NCBI GenBank assembly: GCA_964454015.1
Contig: CAYVQF010000001.1
Coordinates: 192,053-256,052, forward strand
Length of the DNA: 64,000 nucleotides
Origin: an uncultured Myxococcales bacterium
Lineage (GTDB): Bacteria; Myxococcota_A; Bradymonadia; UBA4248
Direction of reading: 5' to 3'
Shown in pieces: positions 14,131-28,390 of this stretch (within the stretch, counting starts at the first letter, position 1; each line of letters opens with the position of its first letter). The notes beneath the pieces are model-generated. The model worked only from the letters and a program-made list of their open reading frames with translations. It did no database searches and was not told the DNA's origin. The translations under genes were made by a program, and so were the position numbers.

Positions 14131-14292
14131 GCTGGGCGTTTCGCCTCTCTCGTCGGGGGTACAGCCCCGGTCACCTTGCTCGCTGGGCCCGAGCCGGATA
14201 TGGACATAGCCGGCAACGCGGCCGCCGTCTAGCCTGCGGGTGTGGGTGCGCTGGCGTCGCGACTTTTCGTCACCCACGACGGGCTAGGCCAG

Positions 14293-15072
14293 ATGAAGAC
14301 TTACCTCGATTTGGTTCGCACCGTTCTCGAGCAAGGGGAGAGGCGCCAGGATCGCACTGGGACGGGTACCCTGTCCATTTTCGGGGTGCAGGTGCGCTAT
14401 GATCTGCGCCAGGGCTTCCCTCTGTTGACGACCAAGAAGGTGCTCTTTCCTGCCGTCGTTCACGAGTTGCTGTGGTTTCTTCGCGGTGCGACCAACATCC
14501 ACCAAGGCTTGGCCGAGCACACCCCCATCTGGAATGCATGGGCCGACGAGAGGGGTGAGTTGGGTCCCATCTACGGCTATCAATGGCGCAACTGGGGGGG
14601 GCAAGGCATCGATCAGATCGCGGCGGCCCTGCGACTCATCGAGGAGGAGCCCAGCTCACGGCGCATAGTCGTCAGTGCATGGAATGTGAGTGATTTGCCG
14701 CGCATGCGGCTGCCTCCTTGCCACCTCCTCTTTCAGTTCCATGTGTGCGGGGAGCGCCTCGACTGCCAGGTTTACCAACGCTCAGCCGATTTGGCGCTGG
14801 GCGTTCCCTTCAACATCGCCAGCTATGCATTGCTGCTGTCGCTCATGGCCAAGTGGTCCGGTCTGGTGCCTGGTTTCTTGATCCATACGTTGGGAGACGC
14901 GCACATCTACGTCAACCACCGTGAGGGATTGGAGCGGCAATTGGCCCGTGAGCCCTTTCCCCTGCCGAAGCTGCGCTTGGCCGACGCCGGCCTCGACGCG
15001 CTTGCCTTCGAGCACATCGAGATCGTCGATTACCAACACCATCCCTTCATTCCCTTTGCCGTCGCAGTATGA
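14293..15072 (+). CDS. thyA: thymidylate synthase
   Basis: [31 protein letters not shown]..., with the catalytic PPCH motif. Confidence 0.95.
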
Positions 15073-15614
15073 GCCAGCCGGGCCTCGAGATAGTGGTTGC
15101 TGTGGATTGCAACGGCGGTATTGGCCGTGAGGGGCGACTCCCCTGGCATCTGCCGGCGGACCTGGCCCAGTTCAGGCGGCTGACCACCGCGTGTAGCCTG
15201 CCAGGGCGGCGCAACGCCGTGCTCATGGGGCGCAAGACCTGGCTGTCTCTCCCCGCGGCCTTTCGCCCACTCCCGCGCCGCCTCAACGTCGTGGTGAGTG
15301 CAGGTGGCTTGGAGCTGAGAGCAGAGGAGGCCCTGCTGGCGCGATCCTTGTCGCAGGCGCTCGCGCAGGCCGACGCCTTGCCAGAGATCGAGCGACGTTT
15401 CGTCATTGGCGGCGCGCGACTCTATGCGGCGGCGCTGGCCGAAGCGCGCTGTGGCGTGGTTCACCTCACGCGTATCGATGCCGACTTTGCCTGCGATGTT
15501 TTTTTTCCGCCTCTGCCGCCGGCGTTCCAAGTGACGTGCTGCACTCCCTGGCAAGAGGACGCTGGCTATGCGCTGCGCTTCGAGACCCATCGGCGGATGT
15601 CTGATGGCGTGTAG
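15069..15614 (+). CDS. folA: dihydrofolate reductase
   Basis: [25 protein letters not shown]...MGRKTW motifs. ATGA overlap with the thyA stop. Confidence 0.9.
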
Positions 15615-15733
15615 GGCGGGAACCGGGTCGACCGTGCGTGAGATCCCTTGATTGACAACGGGTCTTGCTGTTGTTAGATGAGACGTCCAGTGAGCCTGTT
15701 CTGGGTGCGTGCAGGATAGCATCGAGGTGAATT

Positions 15734-16456
15734 TTGTCTCTCACGGCCGCCCTTGAAGACTATTTGGAAACGATCTACCTGCTGTCGCGCGACGCGGCCG
15801 AGGTGCGGGTGCGCGATATCGCCAAGGCGCGTGACGTCAAAGCGTCGTCGGTGACACCGGCCCTGAAGCGTTTGGCCGAAGTGGGTCACGTGCGCTATGT
15901 CCAGCGCGAGCATGTGGCCTTGACCGAGCAGGGGGCGGAGGAAGCGCGGCGCATTTTGGCTCGGCATGAATTGTTGGCGCGCTTTTTTACCGAGATCCTT
16001 GGCATGGCGGAGGCGGCGGCGGAGCGTGAGGCCTGTGCCATGGAGCATTCCCTGAGCAACGAGGCGATGGACCGCCTGGTGCGCTTTTTCGAGCACCTGA
16101 CGGTTTGCCCCAAGGTGGCGACGTCGTTTCTCGAGACCTTTCGCGGCTGCTCGCGGGTTCACGCCGAGAAGCCTGCCTGTGAGGTGGCACGGTGTCCGGC
16201 CTCCCGCGATGTGGAGCAACACCTGATCGCGGCCAATCTCTACGAGCTCAAAGCAGGTTTCAAAGGACGCGTGCGCCAGATTCGCGCGCAAGGGGCGGTG
16301 CGGCAGCGCCTCCTCGACATGGGTATCCTCCCCAACACCGAGGTGACCATGGAGCGCAGCGCTCCTGGTGGTGACCCGATCTGGGTCAAGGTGCATGGTA
16401 CCCAACTGGCGCTGCGCAAAAACGAGGCGCTGTCGATCCTCATCGACTTCGTTTAG
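15734..16456 (+). CDS. DtxR/MntR-family metal-dependent transcriptional regulator with C-terminal FeoA-like domain
   Basis: N-terminus LEDYLETIYLLS...VRVRDIAKARDVKASSVTPALKRL (DtxR HTH). C-terminal FeoA/SH3-like segment (GFKGRVRQIRAQGAVRQRLLDMGILPNTEV). TTG start. Confidence 0.85.
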   Translation: MSLTAALEDYLETIYLLSRDAAEVRVRDIAKARDVKASSVTPALKRLAEVGHVRYVQREHVALTEQGAEEARRILARHELLARFFTEILGMAEAAAEREACAMEHSLSNEAMDRLVRFFEHLTVCPKVATSFLETFRGCSRVHAEKPACEVARCPASRDVEQHLIAANLYELKAGFKGRVRQIRAQGAVRQRLLDMGILPNTEVTMERSAPGGDPIWVKVHGTQLALRKNEALSILIDFV

Positions 16457-16465
16457 GCCGCGGCT

Positions 16466-16858
16466 CTATGCCTTGGGGGCTTCTTCGCCGGAGATGCCGA
16501 GCTCGGTCTGCAGAATTTCCTCGAAATAGTGTTGACCGCGGAGACCCACGACGCGCTCCACGACGCGCCCTTTGTCGAAGATGATGACCGTGGGCGTGCC
16601 GCGCACGCCCAGCTTGGCCGCCGATTTGGCGCTCTGGGTCGTGTTGAGGTGGGCGACCTTGACGCGGCCTTCATACTTGCATGCCAAACGTTTGATCGCC
16701 GGCGCGAGCTGGACGCAAGGTTGACAACCGTCGGACCAGAAGTCGACCAAGACGGGCAACTCCGAAGCCATCACCTCGGCGTGGAAGTTTTTGTCATCGA
16801 GGGCCACAGGGTCCTTCTCACAAGGTGCCGTCAAACCTAACCAATTCAATAATCCCAT
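16466..16858 (-). CDS. thioredoxin family protein
   Basis: VLVDFWSDGCQPCVQLAP active-site region (CxxC) and a thioredoxin-fold C-terminus (GVRGTPTVIIFDKG). Confidence 0.85.
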   Translation of the reverse strand: MGLLNWLGLTAPCEKDPVALDDKNFHAEVMASELPVLVDFWSDGCQPCVQLAPAIKRLACKYEGRVKVAHLNTTQSAKSAAKLGVRGTPTVIIFDKGRVVERVVGLRGQHYFEEILQTELGISGEEAPKA

Positions 16859-16906
16859 GTTATCCTCCGGGCGAACGAGACGTTAACGCAGTCCACGGCG
16901 CTGCGA

Positions 16907-17149
16907 TTAGGAACGGAAGGGGCAGGCGCCGGTGGCGCAGCCGCCGCTGCCAGGACACGAAGGCCCGGGGTGGGCTGCGGCCGCGGTCGTGCCGCCGGCG
17001 GCGGCGATGGCAAAAGTGGACAGGCGGCGCTTGGCGTCGCCACCACAGATGGGGCACGCCGCCGATGCCACCTCGTCAGTGCGTGCGCGTAGTTTCTCAA
17101 AGTCACGCTGACACGGTTCACAGTGGTATTCGTACAAGGGCATGGTCAC
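16907..17149 (-). CDS. FmdB-family zinc-ribbon protein
   Basis: MPLYEYHCEPC...CPICGG (CxxC_CxxC_SSSS-type). The start may be 17143. Confidence 0.8.
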   Translation of the reverse strand: MTMPLYEYHCEPCQRDFEKLRARTDEVASAACPICGGDAKRRLSTFAIAAAGGTTAAAAHPGPSCPGSGGCATGACPFRS

Positions 17150-19305: not shown

Positions 19306-20850
19306 ATGCAGTCTACTGACGTGAATGAAGCTCGTCCCCTTTTCCCCATGGCGCATCAACTGCACACCTGCATTTGGGAGCTGACCCTCGCCTGTAACCT
19401 TCAGTGCCGCCACTGTGGCTCCCGCGCGGGCAAGGCGCGACCTGCTGAGATGAGCTTGGAGAAGTGCATCGAGGTCGCGCGAGAGTTGGCGTCCCTCGGT
19501 TGTGCGCGAGTCACTTTGTCGGGCGGCGAGCCCACCCTCAAGCAGGGCTGGGAGGAGATCGCCGCGGCGCTGAGCCAGGGTGGGGTCTACGTCAACATGA
19601 TCACCAACGCGGCCTATGGCAGTCGCGCCGCGGCGATCGAGGTGGGGCGCAAGGCGTTGGCGGCGGGCATGGGCAACATCGGCGTCAGCCTGGACGGGAC
19701 GGAGGCCCTGCACGACGAGCTGCGTGGCGCAGGCGTTTTTGCCCAGACCCTGGAGAGCCTGGAGGCTTTCGCGACGGTGGGGCTCAAGACCGCGGTTTTG
19801 ACGACCATCACGGAGAAGAATTTTGAGGCGCTGCCGGAGATACGGCGCATCGCCATGGAAGCAGGGGCGCGGATTTGGCGTTTGCAGTTGGCTTTGCCCA
19901 TGGGCGTTTTGGAGGAGCAGCGCGCCTGGGTGATTCACCCGCGCCGCTTGGTGGAGTTGATGCCGCTATTGGCTGATTTGTCCCAGCAGAAAGGGATCAA
20001 GACCATGCTCTCTGACTCGGTGGGCTATTATGGTCCCTTCGATAGGGTTCTGCGTGGTGGCAAGCTGCTGTCACGACGCAGCACGTGGCGAGGTTGCCAG
20101 GCTGGTCTGAGGGTGATTGGCATCGAAGCCGACGGCGGGGTGAAGGGTTGCCTGTCGATGCAGGCGCCACGACCGCGAGGCGCGGACACAGCATCGGATT
20201 CATTCCGAGAAGGTAACCTGCACACGCAGTCACTGGCGGAGATCTGGGGCAACCCAGAGGCCTTCGCTTACAACCGGCGCTTCCAACTCAGCGCCTTGAA
20301 GGGGACCTGTGCGAAGTGTCGTTTTGCGGCGGTGTGCCGGGGAGGAGCCCGTTGTGTTGCGGCTGCCACAGGGAACACGTTGGCTGAGAACGCCTACTGC
20401 TATGCGGCTCAGACGGGTCTCTGGTACAAGCCGCCGACGGCTTTGCGCAACATGGCCGTGGGGGCCGCCGCGGCCATGCTGTTGTCTGGCGGTGCGATGC
20501 TGGGGTGTGACGATGAGGTGCGGCCTGCGCCATCAGACGTGCAGGATGGTGGCGCAGACCAGGATGTCATCGGTGTGGACGTGCTCTACGGACTGCCGGA
20601 AGATATGACGGATGTCCAGCCTCCCTATGGTCTGCCTGAAGATATCCAGCCTCCCTATGGTTTGCCCGATGATGTCGACGTGCTCTACGGCGTCCCCGAC
20701 GATCTGGACGATGGCATGGTCGATGTAGACGAGGTGGATATGCACCCGCTCTACGGAGTGGATGCCGAGGAAGGCGACGTGGAGCCGCCCTATGGTTTGC
20801 CCGAGGATATGGCGCCGGCCTATGGCCTACCCGACGATGTTGTCGATTGA
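19306..20850 (+). CDS. radical SAM/SPASM domain protein with C-terminal hydrophobic segment and acidic YG(L/V)P repeat tail
   Basis: CNLQCRHC rSAM motif and GGEPTL. SPASM Cys cluster CAKCRFAAVCRGGARC. GGAGG lies 7 nt upstream of ATG 19306. The tail is described under findings. Confidence 0.9.
   Translation: MQSTDVNEARPLFPMAHQLHTCIWELTLACNLQCRHCGSRAGKARPAEMSLEKCIEVARELASLGCARVTLSGGEPTLKQGWEEIAAALSQGGVYVNMITNAAYGSRAAAIEVGRKALAAGMGNIGVSLDGTEALHDELRGAGVFAQTLESLEAFATVGLKTAVLTTITEKNFEALPEIRRIAMEAGARIWRLQLALPMGVLEEQRAWVIHPRRLVELMPLLADLSQQKGIKTMLSDSVGYYGPFDRVLRGGKLLSRRSTWRGCQAGLRVIGIEADGGVKGCLSMQAPRPRGADTASDSFREGNLHTQSLAEIWGNPEAFAYNRRFQLSALKGTCAKCRFAAVCRGGARCVAAATGNTLAENAYCYAAQTGLWYKPPTALRNMAVGAAAAMLLSGGAMLGCDDEVRPAPSDVQDGGADQDVIGVDVLYGLPEDMTDVQPPYGLPEDIQPPYGLPDDVDVLYGVPDDLDDGMVDVDEVDMHPLYGVDAEEGDVEPPYGLPEDMAPAYGLPDDVVD
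20575..20847 (+). repeat. degenerate in-frame tandem repeat encoding seven [L/P/A]YG[L/V][P/D][E/D][D/E] units
   Basis: Recurring DNA unit of the form ccctatggtYtgccYgaRgat. Peptide units: LYGLPED, PYGLPED, PYGLPDD, LYGVPDD, LYGVDAE, PYGLPED, AYGLPDD. Confidence 0.85.
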
Positions 20851-23713: not shown

Positions 23714-26700
23714 CTAGAGGGAGAAGGCGGGATCGACGAGGGCGGCTCCGACGAAGGCGCGCGCAGCGGCGTCGACCTGGTCGGGCACTTGAATGACCTG
23801 GAGGATTTCTTGGACGAAGGGGCCCACCAAGAGGTCAGCTTGCGGGTTTTGTTGGGCCAAGGCAGCCAAGGCTTCGAGGCGCTGGGTGATCTCTTCTGCG
23901 GCGGTGGTTTGGCCGCGGATGATCTGCAAGGACAGTCGGGTAGCGTTGAGGACTGCCGCGTTGGGGTGCTCAGGTGCCAAGGTGAGCCAGACTCTGAGGA
24001 CGCGGTCGACTTCATCGGCGAGGGCCGCGAGTTCCCTTTTTTGGGCCAATAGGGAGAGCATGGTCTGACGCAGAGTCATTTCATCGACGAGGGGGATGCG
24101 CCCCTCTCGGATGGCCAAGCTCCAGGACATGCTGGCAAAGAGTTGTTGGTGGTCGTGGAGTTGCATGAGCAGCGGCAAGATGAGGGTTATGAAGTCTGCG
24201 TAGGCGAGGGGGCCGAGGTCGGCGTCGATGTGGTCGGCGATGGCGCTGGTGAGGGCCATGGCGGCTGCCGTGTCTTGATCGGCGAAGGCGATGTGCAGCA
24301 GATAGTGGACGAAGATGAGGGCGCTGATGGCATCGTTGTTTTGCGCCAGCTCGCGGATGATTTCCGTGAGTTCCGGGGCGCTGCGTCGCTCTTGGCTGTG
24401 TTCGAGGAATGTGATCCAGCTCTGGATGCGCGTGCGCACGACAGGGTCGAGGACAGGTAAGCGGATTTTTCTCAGGGTGTCGCGGGCAGCGAGGTGTTGT
24501 TGGTTGGCTTGGAGGCGAGCCGATAACACGATGCCAGCCTTCCATTGGTGATCTTTGGCGAGGCTCGCCTCCAGGCGTTGGTGCGCGCTGGCGAGCTGTT
24601 GTTCGTTGGCGTCACGCGTGTCGAGCAAAAAGGTGAGGATGGCTTTCTGGTTGGCCGTGGCCATGCCATCGAGGATGCGCGGTGGGTTGTCGAGGTCGAT
24701 GCCCGTGGGAGTTGGGAGCGATTGGAGGAAAAGAAGGAGTTGGTTCGCGGTCCAGACGTGGCCGTGGTCGTAGGCGTCGGCCAAGACCCAATACGCGAGA
24801 TCGCTTTCGAGGTTTTGTTGTGAGGTCGCTAAGCCAATGGCCTTGGGGCCGAGGATGGCCGTAGAGGCGAAGACGAGGAGGCGCATGCGCTCGATGGCGT
24901 CGAGGAGGGTGAGCTCGGCGAGGCGCTGATCCCCAAGGCGCATGGCGACAGTGGCGTTGGACAAGAAGGCGTAGAGTTGCTTGTCGTAGCGGGTGATGTT
25001 GGTGGTGGGGCTCTGACAGTCAATGCGCTCATCGTTGGTGCTGTGGGTGCCCAGGCCCAGTCCGAGTTGGAAGTTACCGCTGGGGGGACCCGCTGAGTGG
25101 AAGTGGTCGAGGTCGTATTGGATCTTTAAGACGAGATTGAGGGGGCCGCGCTGGGCATTGAGTTGGCATTGGAGTTGGGTGTTGCCCGAGAGCAGCTCGA
25201 AAGCGACCAAGGCGCGATAGAGCTCGATGGCTTCGCGGACCATTGCCGCGTCGCCGCGCTGCAAGTAGGCCTTGGCCATGTAAGGGAGCAGGCTGTAGAG
25301 GATGTGTCCCCGTTGTTGATCGAGTTGAGGTCGGGCAAAATCGGTGATGAGGGATTCGGCGACGGCAAGGGCAAAAGGCTGGCGTTGTGCATCATCGGCG
25401 AGGACGCCGACGAAGAGGAGGCGGGGCACATAGGTGAGGTGGCTCATCTCGCTGTTGGCGATGGCGCGCTCTGCGGCCGCGACGAATTGCTGCGCCCTGG
25501 GCGGATCACGACGGGCGAGTAACAAGGCGGCGGCGAGATCAGCGAAAAGAGAGAGATTTTCGGGGGCGTCGTCGAAGGCGGCCTCCAGGGCATTGACGAA
25601 TCGCACCTGTACCTGCTGGCTTTGCGCGGTGTCGGAGGTGGTCTCTAGGTCTTGATTGTCGTCGAACCATGCCTCCACGCCGACATCTGCCATGGCACGG
25701 GCGAAGCGGAGGATGAAGTGATGCACCGGGATCTCTTCTTGCGCCGCAGGCGCAACGCTGAGGCTCTGGGCGATCTGCTGGATGGCGGCGTTGAAGCTGG
25801 GCGCTTCTTGCTGGAGTCTAGCCGTGATGTCGATGTCGAGGGCCGCGCTTTGGAGCACGGCGCGCTGTAAGGGAAGGACCAATGCGGTGAGATCCCACAG
25901 GGAGTGTTCGAGGTCCCACTGTTCCAGGGCGCTGCGGCGGAGGCGATCGAGGATGCGATCGGCTTCACGGAGGCTGAGCTCGGCGTGCTCCGCTTCGCGG
26001 GCGGCGATGAGGGTGTAGGCGAGGTAGTCTGCGATGACCAGGCGGGTCAGGTCCAGGACGATGGCAGGCGCTCCGCTTTCGTTTTCACTGGGCTGGAGCT
26101 TCTGATGGATGGTGCTTTGCACACTGTGCCAGTCTGGGGTCTGGGATGGGTCGAAGCTGCGCAGCTCCGCGAGGAGGTCAAGACACCTGGTGAAGCTTGC
26201 TTCGTGTTCTTCCCAGCGGAAATTTTTCAGCAATTTGGGGAGATCCAGGTTGGCTTGGCGTTGGAGGGTGGCAAAGGCGGCTCCGTTCGTGGTGTCTCCG
26301 TCGGGGCTGGATTGTAGGCTCTGGGCGATGACCAGAGCGAGGCGTAGTCCTGGTGCTAGTCGGACGAGGAGTGGGGCTTCGGGATCGGCGTCAGCATTGG
26401 CCACGGGAGTCAAAAGATCGAGGGCTTGTCCGAGGGTTGTTTCGAGGGGGACGCCGGCGACGATCCAGGCGACGAGGCCAGTGACGACATCAATGCCGGC
26501 GCGGACGACCTGATCATCAGGGGTGTCGCTGAGGCGGGCGCGGAGGCGTTGGAGTCCGCCAGCGAGCTCTGCGATCAGGCGCTCCGTGTCGGTGTCCGAT
26601 TGGTTGAAGCTGGCGGACCAGCCTTGGAGGAGGAGCTCGCCGAGCATCTGGACGGAAGCCAGGGAGGGATCAGGATCATGGCGGGCTCTCTCCATGGCGA

Positions 26701-28270
26701 GGTCAATGAGGATGGGGATGCGCTCGGGGTTGCGACAGATCTTGGTGTAGTCGATGGCGGTGAAGATGCGGGTGGCGTTGCGGCTGAGGTAAGCCTCCAT
26801 GTGATCGTTGGCCATGTCATGCTCGAGGCCCTGGCCGAGGTGCAGGCAGAGTGGGTCGATGGCGCGAGGATCGGCTTGGAGCCAGGGGGCATAGCGGAGG
26901 GTGCCGAGGGCGACCGTCGTGGGTCGCAGGTGCAGCCAGCGGTTTTCCTCTTGTTGGCTCCAGGTCATCCATTGGCGGATGGCCACGCGATCTGGGTCAC
27001 CCTGGGGGGTGACCAGGCGGTTGGCTTGGCTCCAGAGGTGGAGATCGGGCCTCCCGAGGCGGGCGAGCTTCTGGTCGAAGTCAAAGAGAGCACTCAGGAA
27101 TTCTGGGCTGTCGAGGATGTCGAAGGTGCGATCGACTGGCCAGCTCTCGAGGTGGTCGCTGAAGCTGCTGAAGCGCGCCGTGAGGGTGTTGAGCAGGACG
27201 GCAGGTCGGGCGTCGAGTCGTTGGGCGAGCGCGTCGTTGTCGGCAGCGTAGGCGCGCCGCTTGGCGGCGGTGCTCCAATGACGTGGACGGGTGGATGGAT
27301 CGCTGAGGCCGTTGCCGTTGCGGGTGAGGGTGAGGACTTGGGTGAAGTAGGCGGTGAGGTTGGCGTCGTCTGGGTGGGTGCAGGCGGCGTCGAGTTGCTG
27401 GGCAAGGTTTGCCTGTTGATCCCCGCCGATGAGTTGATCGAGGACCGTGAGGGCGAAGAGGATGGGTGCGCGGGTGTGGCAGAGGCTCGGGTCATTGGGG
27501 AGCAGGAGCAGGGCTTGGTTGAGCTGTTGCCATGCTGCGAAGACTTCGCCTTGGCGCCAGTGGCGGTCGCCCTTGGCGACGGCGACGGCGAAGTCCCAGG
27601 CGCCAGCGGTGGGGGCGACGGGGATTCCGGCGAGGCGCTCGATGAGTGGTGCTGCGGGTTGGACGTACCATTGTCCATCGGCACCTTGGAAGGTGAGGGC
27701 CAGGTTGCCACTGGCGGCGACGAGGGCCGCAGTGCTGATGGGCAGGTCGAGGGTGGCGTTGAGGTCGAGGGTGACGGGCAACACAGGGACGTCACCCTTT
27801 AGGGCTGAGCGGAGAGGGGTGAGATCGAGCTTCGTGGCGCCGATGGCCAAGATGGCATCTCTTCCCAGCGGTGCTGGCTGGGGGAGGGTCATGTCGGTGA
27901 CGAAGGCATAGTCGGGGGCTCTATCTCGAGGGAGCCAGGGTTTGCCGTCGAACCACACGGCGAGCCGCGCCCAGTGCGGCTGTTGTTGGGGCGTCTGACG
28001 AGGCGTGGCAGCCCAGAGCAGTTGGCCGACGGCGACGGCGTCTTGGCGGAAGATGGCGTCTGCCAGTTGGGCTTCGCAGAAGAGGAGGTCGTGGGAGGGG
28101 TCTTCGAGGCAGGCCAAGACGCCCTCAGGCAGCCCGGGCGGTGGTTCGAGCACGGGGCTGAAGGTGGGGGCGCTGGAGCACGCGGCGAGAAGTGATGCGA
28201 GGACGAGGAGGGAGGCGCGCAGGGTTGCGCTTGCTTTGGAGCTGGATGGCGGTGGGTTGCGGACAAACAT
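23714..28270 (-). CDS. very large (1518 aa) predicted lipoprotein, all-helical repeat-like, function unknown
   Basis: Start at MFVRNPPP..., signal plus lipobox LLVLASLLAACSS. The rest is Leu/Ala/Gln/Asp-rich with no catalytic motif recognised. It is the only long ORF on this stretch with normal amino-acid composition. Confidence 0.8.
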   Translation of the reverse strand: MFVRNPPPSSSKASATLRASLLVLASLLAACSSAPTFSPVLEPPPGLPEGVLACLEDPSHDLLFCEAQLADAIFRQDAVAVGQLLWAATPRQTPQQQPHWARLAVWFDGKPWLPRDRAPDYAFVTDMTLPQPAPLGRDAILAIGATKLDLTPLRSALKGDVPVLPVTLDLNATLDLPISTAALVAASGNLALTFQGADGQWYVQPAAPLIERLAGIPVAPTAGAWDFAVAVAKGDRHWRQGEVFAAWQQLNQALLLLPNDPSLCHTRAPILFALTVLDQLIGGDQQANLAQQLDAACTHPDDANLTAYFTQVLTLTRNGNGLSDPSTRPRHWSTAAKRRAYAADNDALAQRLDARPAVLLNTLTARFSSFSDHLESWPVDRTFDILDSPEFLSALFDFDQKLARLGRPDLHLWSQANRLVTPQGDPDRVAIRQWMTWSQQEENRWLHLRPTTVALGTLRYAPWLQADPRAIDPLCLHLGQGLEHDMANDHMEAYLSRNATRIFTAIDYTKICRNPERIPILIDLAMERARHDPDPSLASVQMLGELLLQGWSASFNQSDTDTERLIAELAGGLQRLRARLSDTPDDQVVRAGIDVVTGLVAWIVAGVPLETTLGQALDLLTPVANADADPEAPLLVRLAPGLRLALVIAQSLQSSPDGDTTNGAAFATLQRQANLDLPKLLKNFRWEEHEASFTRCLDLLAELRSFDPSQTPDWHSVQSTIHQKLQPSENESGAPAIVLDLTRLVIADYLAYTLIAAREAEHAELSLREADRILDRLRRSALEQWDLEHSLWDLTALVLPLQRAVLQSAALDIDITARLQQEAPSFNAAIQQIAQSLSVAPAAQEEIPVHHFILRFARAMADVGVEAWFDDNQDLETTSDTAQSQQVQVRFVNALEAAFDDAPENLSLFADLAAALLLARRDPPRAQQFVAAAERAIANSEMSHLTYVPRLLFVGVLADDAQRQPFALAVAESLITDFARPQLDQQRGHILYSLLPYMAKAYLQRGDAAMVREAIELYRALVAFELLSGNTQLQCQLNAQRGPLNLVLKIQYDLDHFHSAGPPSGNFQLGLGLGTHSTNDERIDCQSPTTNITRYDKQLYAFLSNATVAMRLGDQRLAELTLLDAIERMRLLVFASTAILGPKAIGLATSQQNLESDLAYWVLADAYDHGHVWTANQLLLFLQSLPTPTGIDLDNPPRILDGMATANQKAILTFLLDTRDANEQQLASAHQRLEASLAKDHQWKAGIVLSARLQANQQHLAARDTLRKIRLPVLDPVVRTRIQSWITFLEHSQERRSAPELTEIIRELAQNNDAISALIFVHYLLHIAFADQDTAAAMALTSAIADHIDADLGPLAYADFITLILPLLMQLHDHQQLFASMSWSLAIREGRIPLVDEMTLRQTMLSLLAQKRELAALADEVDRVLRVWLTLAPEHPNAAVLNATRLSLQIIRGQTTAAEEITQRLEALAALAQQNPQADLLVGPFVQEILQVIQVPDQVDAAARAFVGAALVDPAFSL

Positions 28271-28390
28271 GATACTCTCGCAAGTGAAGCGGTGTGACAC
28301 GCGTGGTGCGTGATCAGGGGTCCTTTCTGGACTATGCTTCCTTTTCGAATTTTCGTCAGCAGATCGCGCGCTGACAGTCAGGTGGCACCC

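Follow-up and report, generated by a model that had tools for sequence, protein, structure and literature searches.

A single reading frame joins an enzyme, a lipoprotein-like signal and a Tyr-Gly repeat tail

The window, a 64,000-nucleotide stretch of DNA from an uncultured Myxococcales bacterium, contains a reading frame in which a radical SAM/SPASM enzyme is continued by a hydrophobic segment that ends in a lipobox and then by a repeat tail (Table 1). The original prediction had proposed this layout for a peptide-modifying enzyme from the letters alone. Every feature that it described was found in the translation of the 514-residue frame: the cluster motif CNLQCRHC (residues 30-37), the SPASM cysteine cluster (including CAKCRFAAVCRGGARC, residues 335-350), the in-frame ATG at 20452, the lipobox-like end and the tail. 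The start codon at 19306 is preceded by GGAGG, and gene callers returned the identical product on 6 contigs from at least four separate assemblies.

Table 1 Features of the reading frame in the window (aa, residues of the 514-residue product)
Feature	Coordinates	Strand	Basis or remark
Whole ORF, 514 aa and stop: enzyme, lipoprotein signal and XYG-repeat tail in one frame	19306..20850	+	Translation
Radical SAM domain, aa 25-179; CX3CX2C motif CNLQCRHC at 19393-19416	19378..19842	+	PF04055, E 2.8e-19
SPASM span, aa 264-365, seven conserved Cys	20095..20400	+	PF13186, aa 264-338
Lipoprotein-signal-like element, aa 376-401, including in-frame ATG 20452	20431..20508	+	Lipobox pattern, family alignment, AlphaFold2 helix
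Disordered tail, acidic and rich in Pro, aa 402-514; would be the splicease substrate and the mature lipoprotein	20509..20847	+	Composition, pLDDT
XYG unit 1, LYGLPED (Tyr428)	20584..20604	+	
XYG unit 2, PYGLPED (Tyr441)	20623..20643	+	Inside 30-bp x2 DNA repeat 20611-20673
XYG unit 3, PYGLPDD (Tyr451)	20653..20673	+	Inside 30-bp x2 DNA repeat 20611-20673
XYG unit 4, LYGVPDD (Tyr461)	20683..20703	+	
XYG unit 5, LYGVDAE (Tyr483)	20749..20769	+	
XYG unit 6, PYGLPED (Tyr496)	20788..20808	+	Inside 30-bp x2 DNA repeat 20780-20838
XYG unit 7, AYGLPDD (Tyr506)	20818..20838	+	Inside 30-bp x2 DNA repeat 20780-20838

Pfam searches with the product placed a Radical_SAM domain at residues 25-179 (E 2.8e-19) and a SPASM domain at residues 264-338 (E 3.3e-07). 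The cluster cysteines C30, C34 and C37 are kept across the aligned homologues, as is SGGEP, a GGE-type SAM-binding motif at residues 72-76. The SPASM cysteines lie at positions 264, 282, 335, 338, 344, 350 and 365; C338 is nearly invariant and the other six are invariant in the homologue alignment. Judging from their number, these seven would be enough for two auxiliary Fe-S clusters. With its CX3CX2C motif, GGE-type motif and seven-cysteine SPASM region, the protein belongs to the radical SAM/SPASM superfamily. The radical SAM domain begins at about residue 22, and no N-terminal RRE domain was found in the 514-residue protein. The enzyme core was confidently modelled by AlphaFold2, with pLDDT above 90 for the radical SAM domain. 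Its nearest folds in Foldseek are SkfB, PqqE, SuiB and anSME, all of them SPASM enzymes that modify peptides or proteins.

The model contains a helix at residues 378-395, immediately behind the SPASM domain. The surrounding segment has, as far as its sequence indicates, the n-region, h-region and lipobox of a bacterial lipoprotein precursor: a short n-region with Lys374 and Arg381, an Ala/Gly-rich h-region and the lipobox M-L-G-C, whose cysteine, Cys401, ends MAVGAAAAMLLSGGAMLGC. Residues 391-401 (MLLSGGAMLGC) fit a PROSITE-type lipobox pattern, with [LVI][ASTVI][GAS]C as the lipobox criterion. The pattern matched 120 of 157 family tails as opposed to 11 of 157 shuffles. The lipobox cysteine is present in 155 of the 157 tails, with Gly, Ala or Ser at position -1 in 94%. 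The n-regions carry a mean of 3 Lys/Arg, the uncharged run has a median length of 16 residues, and the mature part contains 2.5% Lys plus Arg. A lipoprotein signal is expected at the N-terminus; here the lipobox cysteine is residue 401 of 514. Twin-arginine export was considered and rejected, as an RR pair stands near the h-region in only 40 of the 120 lipobox-matching tails and is absent from the window protein.

The tail that follows is 113 residues long and contains exactly seven x-Y-G-[L/V] units, the number originally counted. It is also almost devoid of basic residues, as had been described, with 34 Asp plus Glu, 1 Arg and no Lys. All seven of its tyrosines precede a glycine, and seven YG pairs were reached in none of 200,000 shuffles of the tail. 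It contains neither a cysteine after the lipobox nor a GDL motif. AlphaFold2 predicts the tail to be disordered (pLDDT below 50 from residue 399), and at this confidence the model shows neither an XYG site docked in the active site nor a contact between tail and enzyme.

The tail and the enzyme-tail fusion lie outside all Pfam and NCBIfam models, in keeping with the initial impression that the fusion belongs to no recognised family. With the tail as phmmer query, 1.8 billion representatives yielded the window's own protein and otherwise nothing but spurious matches to low-complexity repeats, which is uninformative on stand-alone tails. A profile of three repeat units gave no match at E <= 0.001 in a database too large for so short a model. 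An over-permissive scan of contigs with back-translated [DE]YGVEPD gave one multi-match locus among the matches listed, on the contig of the already known family locus L024.

Conservation of the fusion in Myxococcota

Of the best 80 GTDB loci, 54 have the same architecture, and so have almost all of the 120 top-ranking homologues in the databases. The shared design thus extends to no fewer than 54 species genomes in GTDB and some 120 proteins in the databases, with Myxococcota as the source of almost all. Because it recurs in these loci and homologues, the fusion is not an assembly artefact, a concern raised at the outset that is also answered by the identical protein in at least four independent assemblies.

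Repeat conservation, a check that had been proposed together with the prediction, is evident throughout the family: 707 of the 906 tyrosines in family tails stand in YG, against 74 +/- 8 expected. The logo of the 157 tails reads [DE]-Y-G-[VI]-x-P-[DE], the residue before Tyr being Asp or Glu in 92% of sites, with acidic residues also at +5/+6. What is conserved in these otherwise variable tails is the YG motif, and the number of sites, seven in the window protein, rises to 12 in relatives. CC-x-C modules are also present in 129 of the 157 tails. In the tails of some relatives (L033), Ca-binding-like DxDxDGxxDxxD modules are interleaved.

A second proposed check was whether orthologues keep the tail or encode it separately, and both arrangements occur. 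Beside the fused loci there is a tail-less sister clade, in which 11 of 27 loci carry a separate adjacent repeat gene. Each of these genes encodes a leader of roughly 20-40 residues, a lipobox signal and Y[G/A/M]-[AV]-P repeats. By its sequence features, the separate gene appears to be a split form of the fused design and provides Rosetta-stone evidence for the tail as the enzyme's substrate. The sister-clade precursors carry mostly Y-M or Y-A, not Y-G, and the chemistry across the wider group may therefore not be uniform. A rough NJ tree unites the fused proteins in a single clade, except for L077, which joins the tail-less clade.

Neither the window locus nor the related loci contain a conserved neighbouring protease, transporter, RRE protein, precursor or Y protein. 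No stand-alone repeat ORF with at least three strict units was found among 89 sequences examined, nor were DUF1843/GDL-type partners found near the tail-less Myxococcota relatives. Two further genes were considered as conserved partners and rejected. The downstream beta-propeller (PF09826) is missing at all 80 related loci; the upstream kinase is matched at 12 of the 80 at any position and is adjacent in none of four homologue contexts.

Relationship of the enzyme to splicease-associated families

The best NCBIfam matches of the enzyme are TIGR03913 (GDL motif peptide-associated radical SAM/SPASM maturase, 237.4 bits) and TIGR04103 (nif11-class peptide radical SAM maturase 3, 236.6 bits), followed by the next SPASM family at 139 bits. 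Since these scores lie far below the equivalog cut-offs of 591.75 bits for TIGR03913 and 725 bits for TIGR04103, the window enzyme is a relative, not a member, of both families. TIGR03913 is further defined by a partner with a Y-G-V...GDL motif, of which the GDL part is absent from the tail. Weaker matches include MftC (115 bits) and PqqE (74.9 bits), and WgkB and SkfB also score. Over its full length, the enzyme core shares 36% identity with a Nostoc member of TIGR04103; with a Burkholderia pseudomallei member of TIGR03913, the identity is 37%. The rough tree, which contains no characterised splicease, places the fused clade adjoining the TIGR04103-, TIGR03913- and DUF1843-linked enzymes.

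PlpX, the founding splicease, is a SPASM radical SAM enzyme (class IPR026482); its substrates are Nif11 precursors, and it works jointly with PlpY, a small protein encoded downstream (PMC11002830, PMC10849128). We take TIGR04103 as the PlpX splicease class on its literature description and locus layout rather than on a direct comparison with PlpX. The Nostoc locus has just this layout: a Nif11 precursor ending in ...SIALYGLPPELF is followed by the enzyme and then by a 72-residue ORF. Cyanobacterial precursors carry ALYGLPRDL, PVYGLPPNL and ALYGIFPIP. Among the DUF1842/1843 proteins, those of B. pseudomallei carry TPYGVA, AMYGVA and PMYGVG, while Aureibacter DUF1843 proteins carry QPYGAG, LYAAG and MYAAS. 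Enzymes of both TIGR04103 and TIGR03913 thus adjoin substrates with X-Y-G-[L/V] sites.

The validated PlpXY splice tags include GPIRPLYGLPI and AVAAGYGVVFP (PMC10533398, Table 1). To judge from sequence, the seven window units present what marks the substrates of spliceotide systems, namely X-Y-G sites in a core-like context, the natural cores ALYGLPPELF and PVYGLPPNL being further examples for comparison. Back-translated validated tags (Pleurocapsa PlpA/PlpX) gave no match in the searched genome contigs. A point against the parallel is the Asp or Glu before Tyr in 92% of family sites: in one characterised system, the splicease did not modify a DYG site (PMC11626197).

A candidate self-contained spliceotide precursor

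We favour, at slightly better than even odds (a probability of about 0.55), the reading that the gene encodes a self-contained "lipo-spliceotide" precursor, in which an enzyme of the splicease lineage is tethered via a type II signal to its own seven-site substrate tail. A substrate encoded in cis was one of three readings left open by the original prediction, and it is the best supported of them, by motif identity with the substrates of its closest enzyme relatives, by the split versions in the sister clade and by the absence of other partner genes.

In the mechanism that we envisage, the enzyme domain would fold in the cytoplasm, acquire three Fe-S clusters and act on the still-cytoplasmic disordered tail, its own (in cis) or that of a neighbouring copy. 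The Ala-rich segment, weakly hydrophobic and flanked by basic residues on its N-terminal side and by the acidic tail on its C-terminal side, would then insert in an N-in/C-out orientation, and the tail would be exported post-translationally. Lgt would lipidate Cys401 and signal peptidase II would cut before it, freeing a membrane-anchored acidic lipoprotein with up to seven electrophilic ketoamides. In this way, the export machinery would take over from the leader protease and the transporter found in ordinary RiPP clusters, and the enzyme would stand in for the leader peptide. By likeness to known spliceotides, the spliced tail could serve in protease inhibition at the cell envelope.

The original prediction had cautioned that the tail would lie across the membrane from the SAM-dependent domain. 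This holds once the segment has inserted; it would be reconciled with a substrate role by timing, as modification would have to precede export, by analogy with sulfatases matured by anSME. If the tail were translocated co-translationally, it would never meet the enzyme. Further points against this reading are that making one enzyme per substrate molecule looks costly and that cleavage at a lipobox 400 residues into a protein is only a prediction. The repeat has the X-Y-G site at which tyramine-excising spliceases act, so each spliced site should show a mass shift of about -135.07 Da in place of the -2 Da originally suggested.

The enzyme-substrate pair might instead hold with a different chemistry, a cross-link or other modification at the Tyr motif in place of tyramine excision, which we regard as unlikely. 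Candidate products would be a three-residue cyclophane from Tyr to the +2 residue, a PqqE-like C-C bond from Tyr to Asp/Glu, an epimerised hydrophobic residue or, in Cys-rich relatives, thioethers. SPASM enzymes are versatile, and the scores of PqqE, MftC, WgkB and SkfB, the close folds of PqqE and SuiB, the acidic residues around Tyr at -1 and +5/+6, the CC-x-C modules and the departure of the sister-clade Y-M/Y-A from canonical XYG are all points on this side. Yet TIGR03913 and TIGR04103 score about 100 bits above all other families and both pair with X-Y-G-[L/V] substrates, and the window units closely resemble a validated splice tag (PMC10533398). Thioethers cannot be the core function because the window tail has no cysteine after the lipobox. 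The triceptide-type, cyclophane-forming chemistry originally put forward fares poorly: the two splicease-related models reach about 237 bits and all others at most 139, and the 25 best NCBIfam families, each with 50 bits or more, include no cyclophane maturase family (XyeB, GrrM or FxsB).

Quite improbable, in our view, is that the tail is not a substrate at all and that the gene encodes a membrane protein, bitopic or processed, whose cytoplasmic radical SAM domain acts on something else, such as another peptide, a lipid or a cofactor. The tail would then act as a spacer in the periplasm, bind metal or matrix, or mediate interactions, and its fusion would serve co-expression or localisation only. 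Acidic Pro-rich disordered regions are common envelope spacers, the tail lies across the membrane after insertion and makes no contact with the enzyme in the AlphaFold2 model, and the Ca-binding-like modules of some relatives would also fit. Such a role leaves unexplained why the sole conserved element of the tail is the recognition motif of the enzyme's nearest relatives, and why the adjacent repeat lipoprotein of the sister clade has a cytoplasmic leader before its signal peptide; no other conserved substrate gene lies nearby.

Finally, a nested gene, with the acidic lipoprotein translated from ATG 20452 and the full-length fusion minor or non-functional, has very little probability: Met383 does stand 18 codons before the lipobox cysteine, which would give a signal peptide of textbook length, and 36 of 54 tailed loci have an in-frame ATG, GTG or TTG 14-40 codons before the cysteine, but the other 18 have no possible start, SD-like sequences precede 6.6% of candidate codons vs 9.0% of control in-frame enzyme codons, GGAGG stands before the true start while ATG 20452 lacks an SD, the methionine is unconserved among homologues, and independent translation would not explain an open frame across hundreds of genes.

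Comparison with known systems

The preferred reading, a self-contained spliceotide precursor, has its closest counterparts in the spliceases and spliceotides of Pleurocapsa (PlpX/PlpY/PlpA) and Rheinheimera (RhaX/RasX/RcsX) (Morinaka 2018, Richter 2024), which likewise rely on a radical SAM/SPASM enzyme. They share with the window X-Y-G followed by a hydrophobic residue and Pro, near-identical to validated tags (PMC10533398), and both multiple sites per substrate and the modification of proteins rather than short peptides are known for them. The described natural systems consist of two or three components, X and A and sometimes Y (PMC11414181), whereas the window encodes one polypeptide. It has no Nif11/NHLP leader, no RRE and no Y protein of the kind that belongs to type I systems, and a lipoprotein-type signal peptide lies between enzyme and core. 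The enzyme also stands apart by its 36-37% identity to named family members, below both family cut-offs.

Borosins, whose product is released by a prolyl oligopeptidase, have no signal peptide or lipidation, unlike the window design. As in the window, an N-terminal modifying enzyme is fused to its own C-terminal core (OphMA-type), on which it acts autocatalytically; the borosin enzyme is a SAM methyltransferase rather than a radical SAM enzyme, and the founding borosins are fungal (PMC7878506). Split versions occur beside fused ones (bioRxiv 10.1101/2021.12.24.474128), as in the window's family. In an engineered RhaX-leader fusion, a C-terminal helix activates the splicease and makes the substrate leader unnecessary (Richter et al. 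2024, PMC11414181). The predicted helix at residues 378-395 of the window protein would occupy a comparable position after the SPASM domain. That fusion is artificial and contains the leader helix only, with the core in trans, whereas the window fusion is natural and would include the core.

Further parallels come from radical SAM or export-linked systems. Bufferin precursors use Sec signal peptides, and anSME, among the closest folds of the window enzyme, acts as a cytoplasmic SPASM enzyme on a protein that is still unfolded and awaits export. Bufferins and the anSME/sulfatase pairs have N-terminal signal peptides, separate enzyme and substrate, and no lipobox; the window differs in all three. 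TIGR04133 (model name "rSAM_w_lipo"), which we take to belong with TIGR04134 to a radical SAM/SPASM type paired with a lipoprotein gene, scores 139 bits on the window enzyme, much weaker than the splicease-related models.

Implications

We tentatively suggest, as a possibility less likely than not, that the family represents an unrecognised single-gene RiPP-like class widespread in Myxococcota, in which the enzyme would act as the leader, the internal lipoprotein signal as both export tag and leader-cleavage site, and the product would be a lipid-anchored array of ketoamide (beta-amino acid) warheads on display in the cell envelope. The architecture suggests that an internal signal peptide may serve as RiPP leader and cleavage site, after either a leader of about 20-40 residues or a 380-residue enzyme. 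If this is true, the sister clade would hold this class in split form, as a separate gene with leader, lipobox and Y[G/A/M] repeats. A single-component splicease has so far been attempted by artificial fusion (PMC11414181), and a natural multi-site one could help to install beta-amino acid or ketoamide handles.

Knowledge of spliceases comes from heterologous expression, and reviews state that neither a native product nor a biological role is known for spliceotides (PMC9811515, PMC8868522). If true, the window gene would be the first natural splicease-substrate fusion and would give a first clue to the role of spliceotides in their native hosts. The predicted membrane-anchored spliced lipoprotein offers a testable idea of where spliceotides are located and how they function, one possible function being protease inhibition at the envelope of the predatory, protease-secreting Myxococcota.

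A radical SAM/SPASM enzyme with a Tyr-Gly repeat tail

We read the open reading frame (ORF) as encoding a splicease-lineage rSAM/SPASM enzyme fused to an XYG substrate of its own with multiple sites, a lipoprotein signal peptide lying between the two, at a probability of about 0.55; XYG denotes the motif at which spliceases excise tyramine from Tyr. Translation and Pfam searches recovered every element of the original prediction: the ORF, the rSAM motif, the SPASM cysteines, the ATG at 20452, the hydrophobic segment and the tail. Its count of seven acidic Tyr-Gly units with few basic residues also held (LYGLPED, PYGLPED, PYGLPDD, LYGVPDD, LYGVDAE, PYGLPED and AYGLPDD; 34 acidic residues and a single Arg). 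Each of the seven tail tyrosines precedes Gly, a number reached by none of 200,000 tail shuffles. At the DNA level the tail contains only two 30-bp repeats, both short and each in two copies, so its repetition lies mainly in the peptide motif.

The AlphaFold2 model is confident for the core (pLDDT >90 for most of residues 20-380), followed by a helix at 378-395 and a disordered tail (pLDDT <50), with no docking of any XYG site. The enzyme lacks an N-terminal RRE domain. The helix directly after the SPASM domain is reminiscent of the activating helix fused artificially to the RhaX C-terminus by Richter et al. (PMC11414181), and a similar action here would be speculation.

Features of the ORF and its surroundings in the window
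Feature	Position	Strand	Remark
Thymidylat_synt	14242..15072		gene call; housekeeping cluster (14242..17149) upstream of the ORF
DHFR_1	15069..15614		gene call; overlaps Thymidylat_synt by 4 bp; same cluster
DtxR/IdeR-type repressor with FeoA domain	15734..16456		same cluster
Thioredoxin	16466..16858	-	same cluster
Zn-ribbon protein	16907..17149	-	same cluster
Ser/Thr protein kinase, 603 aa	17253..19064	-	transmembrane segment, C-terminal Sel1 repeats; divergent from ORF
ORF, 514 aa	19306-20850	+	translation
Radical SAM motif CNLQCRHC	aa 30-37	+	translation
Radical_SAM domain	aa 25-179		Pfam
SPASM domain	aa 264-338		Pfam
SPASM region, full seven-Cys set	includes CAKCRFAAVCRGGARC (aa 335-350) and Cys365	+	translation
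Palindrome, 11-bp stem, CATGGCCGTGG...CCGCGGCCATG	20451..20478	+	GC-rich
In-frame Met383	20452	+	translation
Hydrophobic stretch MAVGAAAAMLLSGGAMLGC	last residue Cys401	+	translation
Tail, 113 aa	after Cys401	+	translation
Beta-propeller protein PF09826, 700 aa	21049..23151	+	E 1.8e-110; ~200 bp downstream of ORF
1528-aa ORF	23714..28300	-	lipoprotein-like N-terminus LLVLASLLAACSS

Conservation of the fusion and of its tail motif

Gene calls give the identical 514-aa protein on six contigs, which come from at least four independent ENA assemblies. A GTDB scan of one genome per species returned at least 551 relatives, and 54 of the best 80 loci encode enzyme and tail together in a single uninterrupted frame. 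The fusion, which might have been an artefact joining two genes, is therefore real, widespread and well conserved in architecture. A database search found 526 relatives, of which the best 120 (450-710 aa; named sources Myxococcota, Polyangia or "Deltaproteobacteria") nearly all share the order SPASM, basic residues, Ala-rich hydrophobic stretch with terminal Cys, and acidic repeat tail. Multiple copies occur in several genomes. All fused enzymes except that of locus L077 cluster as one clade in a rough neighbour-joining tree; the L077 enzyme falls with the tail-less clade. At another locus (L029:4012-5562), an apparent frameshift stops the enzyme ORF 16 residues past the lipobox Cys and a Cys-rich YG tail resumes at once in another frame, reflecting a pseudogene or a sequencing error.

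Among 157 distinct tails, length, spacers and extra modules vary freely and one Tyr-Gly motif recurs throughout: 707 of 906 tyrosines lie in Y-G, against 74 +/- 8 expected by shuffling. The family logo is [DE]-Y-G-[VI]-x-P-[DE], with a subtype [P/L/A]-Y-G-[L/V]-P-[DE]-D in the window and its nearest relatives (e.g. L001). CC-x-C-[DE]-Y-G modules occur in 129 of the 157 tails and are missing from the window tail, as is the near-invariant Cys-rich module CC-x-C-[DE]-Y-G-x-PPPP-x-CC that ends 105 of them. Some relatives (L033; L071:3155-4669) interleave DxDxDGxxDCxDxDC modules (thrombospondin-type-3-like) between Tyr sites; both module types may serve disulfide or metal binding, or extra cross-links. 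No Pfam or NCBIfam model matches the tails.

A Cys closes the hydrophobic stretch in 155 of the 157, and position -1 is occupied by Gly, Ala or Ser in 94%. Lys/Arg number three on average in the 15 residues that lead into the hydrophobic core; beyond the Cys, Asp+Glu make up 23% of the sequence, Pro 13% and Lys+Arg just 2.5%. A lipobox pattern of the PROSITE type is present in 120 of 157 tails, compared with 11 of the 157 shuffled sequences that served as controls, and falls at residues 391-401 in the window. Ahead of the Cys, the median uncharged run is 16 residues long, the length of a signal peptide and not of a transmembrane helix. These features make lipoprotein processing at the internal lipobox, at Cys401, a likely prediction.

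Split precursors in tail-less relatives

More distant Myxococcota relatives (38-43% identity) end ~30-70 residues past the SPASM domain. The original prediction had asked whether orthologues keep the tail or encode it separately, and both occur: 11 of 27 tail-less loci (L057, L058, L059, L061, L069, L071, L072, L076, L078, L079 and L080) have one to four adjacent repeat genes, at least one lying upstream on the same strand in eight loci; in the other loci these genes are on the opposite strand. The encoded precursors, which match no Pfam or NCBIfam model, have a conserved N-terminal leader of ~20-40 aa (MSE[KR][EQ]IRE.I..VC.DLD or MDP.TLK.YL.SLC.ELD), a hydrophobic stretch with terminal lipobox Cys, and an acidic or Pro-rich tail of repeated x-Y-[G/A/M]-[A/V]-P, sometimes with interleaved Cys/Asp-rich modules; Y-M or Y-A is favoured in this sister clade. 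Fused and split forms thus follow one plan of cytoplasmic part, lipoprotein signal and Tyr-motif repeats, a short leader making up the cytoplasmic part where the genes are split and the entire enzyme where they are fused. Such a pair of forms is classic gene-fusion evidence that enzyme and tail are functionally linked.

At L059:5265-7931, one tail-less rSAM/SPASM gene has upstream of it a tandem run of four precursor genes of the leader-lipobox-Y[G/M/A] type, whose leaders share 77-100% identity, an arrangement resembling the multi-precursor arrays of other RiPP clusters. A tail-less relative (L063, contig CAVXNY010000003.1; 38% identity) whose C-terminus includes KPIYGNDY belongs to a contig that carries the label of a Methanosarcinaceae archaeon MAG, possibly through lateral transfer or a binning error.

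Relationship to spliceases

The top two NCBIfam models, TIGR03913 ("GDL motif peptide-associated radical SAM/SPASM maturase") and TIGR04103 ("nif11-class peptide radical SAM maturase 3"), each scored 237 bits, ~100 bits above all others and far below the curated cut-offs, which makes the window enzyme a relative and not a member. Fused and tail-less relatives score likewise. PDB sequence and fold searches returned SkfB, PqqE, SuiB and anSME, all peptide- or protein-modifying SPASM enzymes.

The annotated members used for comparison are plasmid-borne. In Nostoc sp. C057, a Nif11-leader precursor ending ...GGRGSIALYGLPPELF is followed by a TIGR04103 enzyme (36% identity to the window core) and a 72-aa ORF, a layout like that of PlpA/PlpX/PlpY, the founding splicease system, with PlpX compared by description only. 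PlpX is a SPASM rSAM enzyme of class IPR026482 (PMC11002830, PMC10849128). The Burkholderia pseudomallei TIGR03913 enzyme (37% identity) is encoded after DUF1843 and DUF1842 proteins with TPYGVAIHQAIADGDL, AAMYGVAIQSAAASGDL and MPMYGVGLQEARASGDL, and a related Aureibacter enzyme after three DUF1843 genes with QPYGAG, LYAAG and MYAAS. In other cyanobacteria, homologues of the Nostoc enzyme follow precursors ending ALYGLPRDL, PVYGLPPNL, ALYGIFPIP, ALYGLPAYGLFPY and APYGLAPW. Experimentally tested PlpXY splice tags include GPIRPLYGLPI and AVAAGYGVVFP (PMC10533398, Table 1). The window unit x-[L/P/A]-Y-G-[L/V]-P thus matches the splice-site context of its nearest relatives.

This match and the sister clade's split genes make a substrate in cis the best supported of the readings first proposed, and core and tail are very probably enzyme and substrate. 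As chemistry we predict tyramine excision with moderate confidence. Cyclophane (triceptide) formation, suggested originally, is less likely, as the best 25 NCBIfam hits include no such maturase family. Across the family, Tyr is mostly preceded by Asp or Glu, and a DYG site was passed over by one characterised splicease (PMC11626197). Natural splicease systems are described as two- or three-component (PMC11414181), from which a natural fused form departs; the splicease-type classification of Scott et al. 2022 may list a fused type.

Internal start and gene neighbourhood

A nested lipoprotein gene translated from 20452 had also been put forward. The true start codon, the ATG at 19306, is preceded by GGAGG; no such site precedes the internal ATG. 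Moreover, in 18 of the 54 tailed loci no in-frame ATG, GTG or TTG lies within the stretch 14-40 codons ahead of the lipobox Cys, and Shine-Dalgarno-like sequences precede such codons in 6.6% of cases against 9.0% at control in-frame codons, so a conserved nested gene was rejected. The palindrome spanning the internal ATG, flagged by a terminator scan, encodes the start of the Ala/Gly-rich segment and may affect translation or just mirror codon content.

A conserved operon was likewise rejected, as four homologues on long contigs have wholly different neighbours. No recurring protease, transporter, RRE protein or separate precursor was found near the genes of fused homologues. The PF09826 protein, whose N-terminus is itself lipoprotein-like (...LAGVAVAASGC), occurs in none of the 80 related loci, being confined to the window's own organism, and is thus not a conserved partner; the 1528-aa ORF has no homologue among them, and kinase-like matches occur in 12 of the 80, counted wherever they lie relative to the enzyme gene. 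Each 2-kb window of the 64 kb shows positive GC skew, and the cumulative skew climbs monotonically to 6.5, placing the window on one replichore, without origin or terminus.

Proposed mechanism and possible role

In our model, the enzyme domain would fold and mature in the cytoplasm, and the tethered, disordered tail would be spliced at up to seven sites, each losing 135.07 Da and gaining a Leu-, Pro- or Ala-derived ketoamide. The Ala-rich, weakly hydrophobic segment would then serve as a type II signal peptide, in an N-in/C-out topology predicted from charge distribution; an acidic tail almost free of Lys/Arg would suit translocation. Lgt and LspA would lipidate and cleave at Cys401, parting a lipid-anchored ketoamide array from the enzyme. 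The caveat that the tail would lie across the membrane from the enzyme is valid, but is answered if modification precedes export, as it does in anSME-matured sulfatases. Such signal-peptide processing would also account for the absence of leader protease and exporter genes. In known spliceotides the ketoamide confers inhibition of Ser and Cys proteases (PMC11626197), and by analogy an envelope-anchored array of protease inhibitors would be a reasonable but unproven role for the fused protein.
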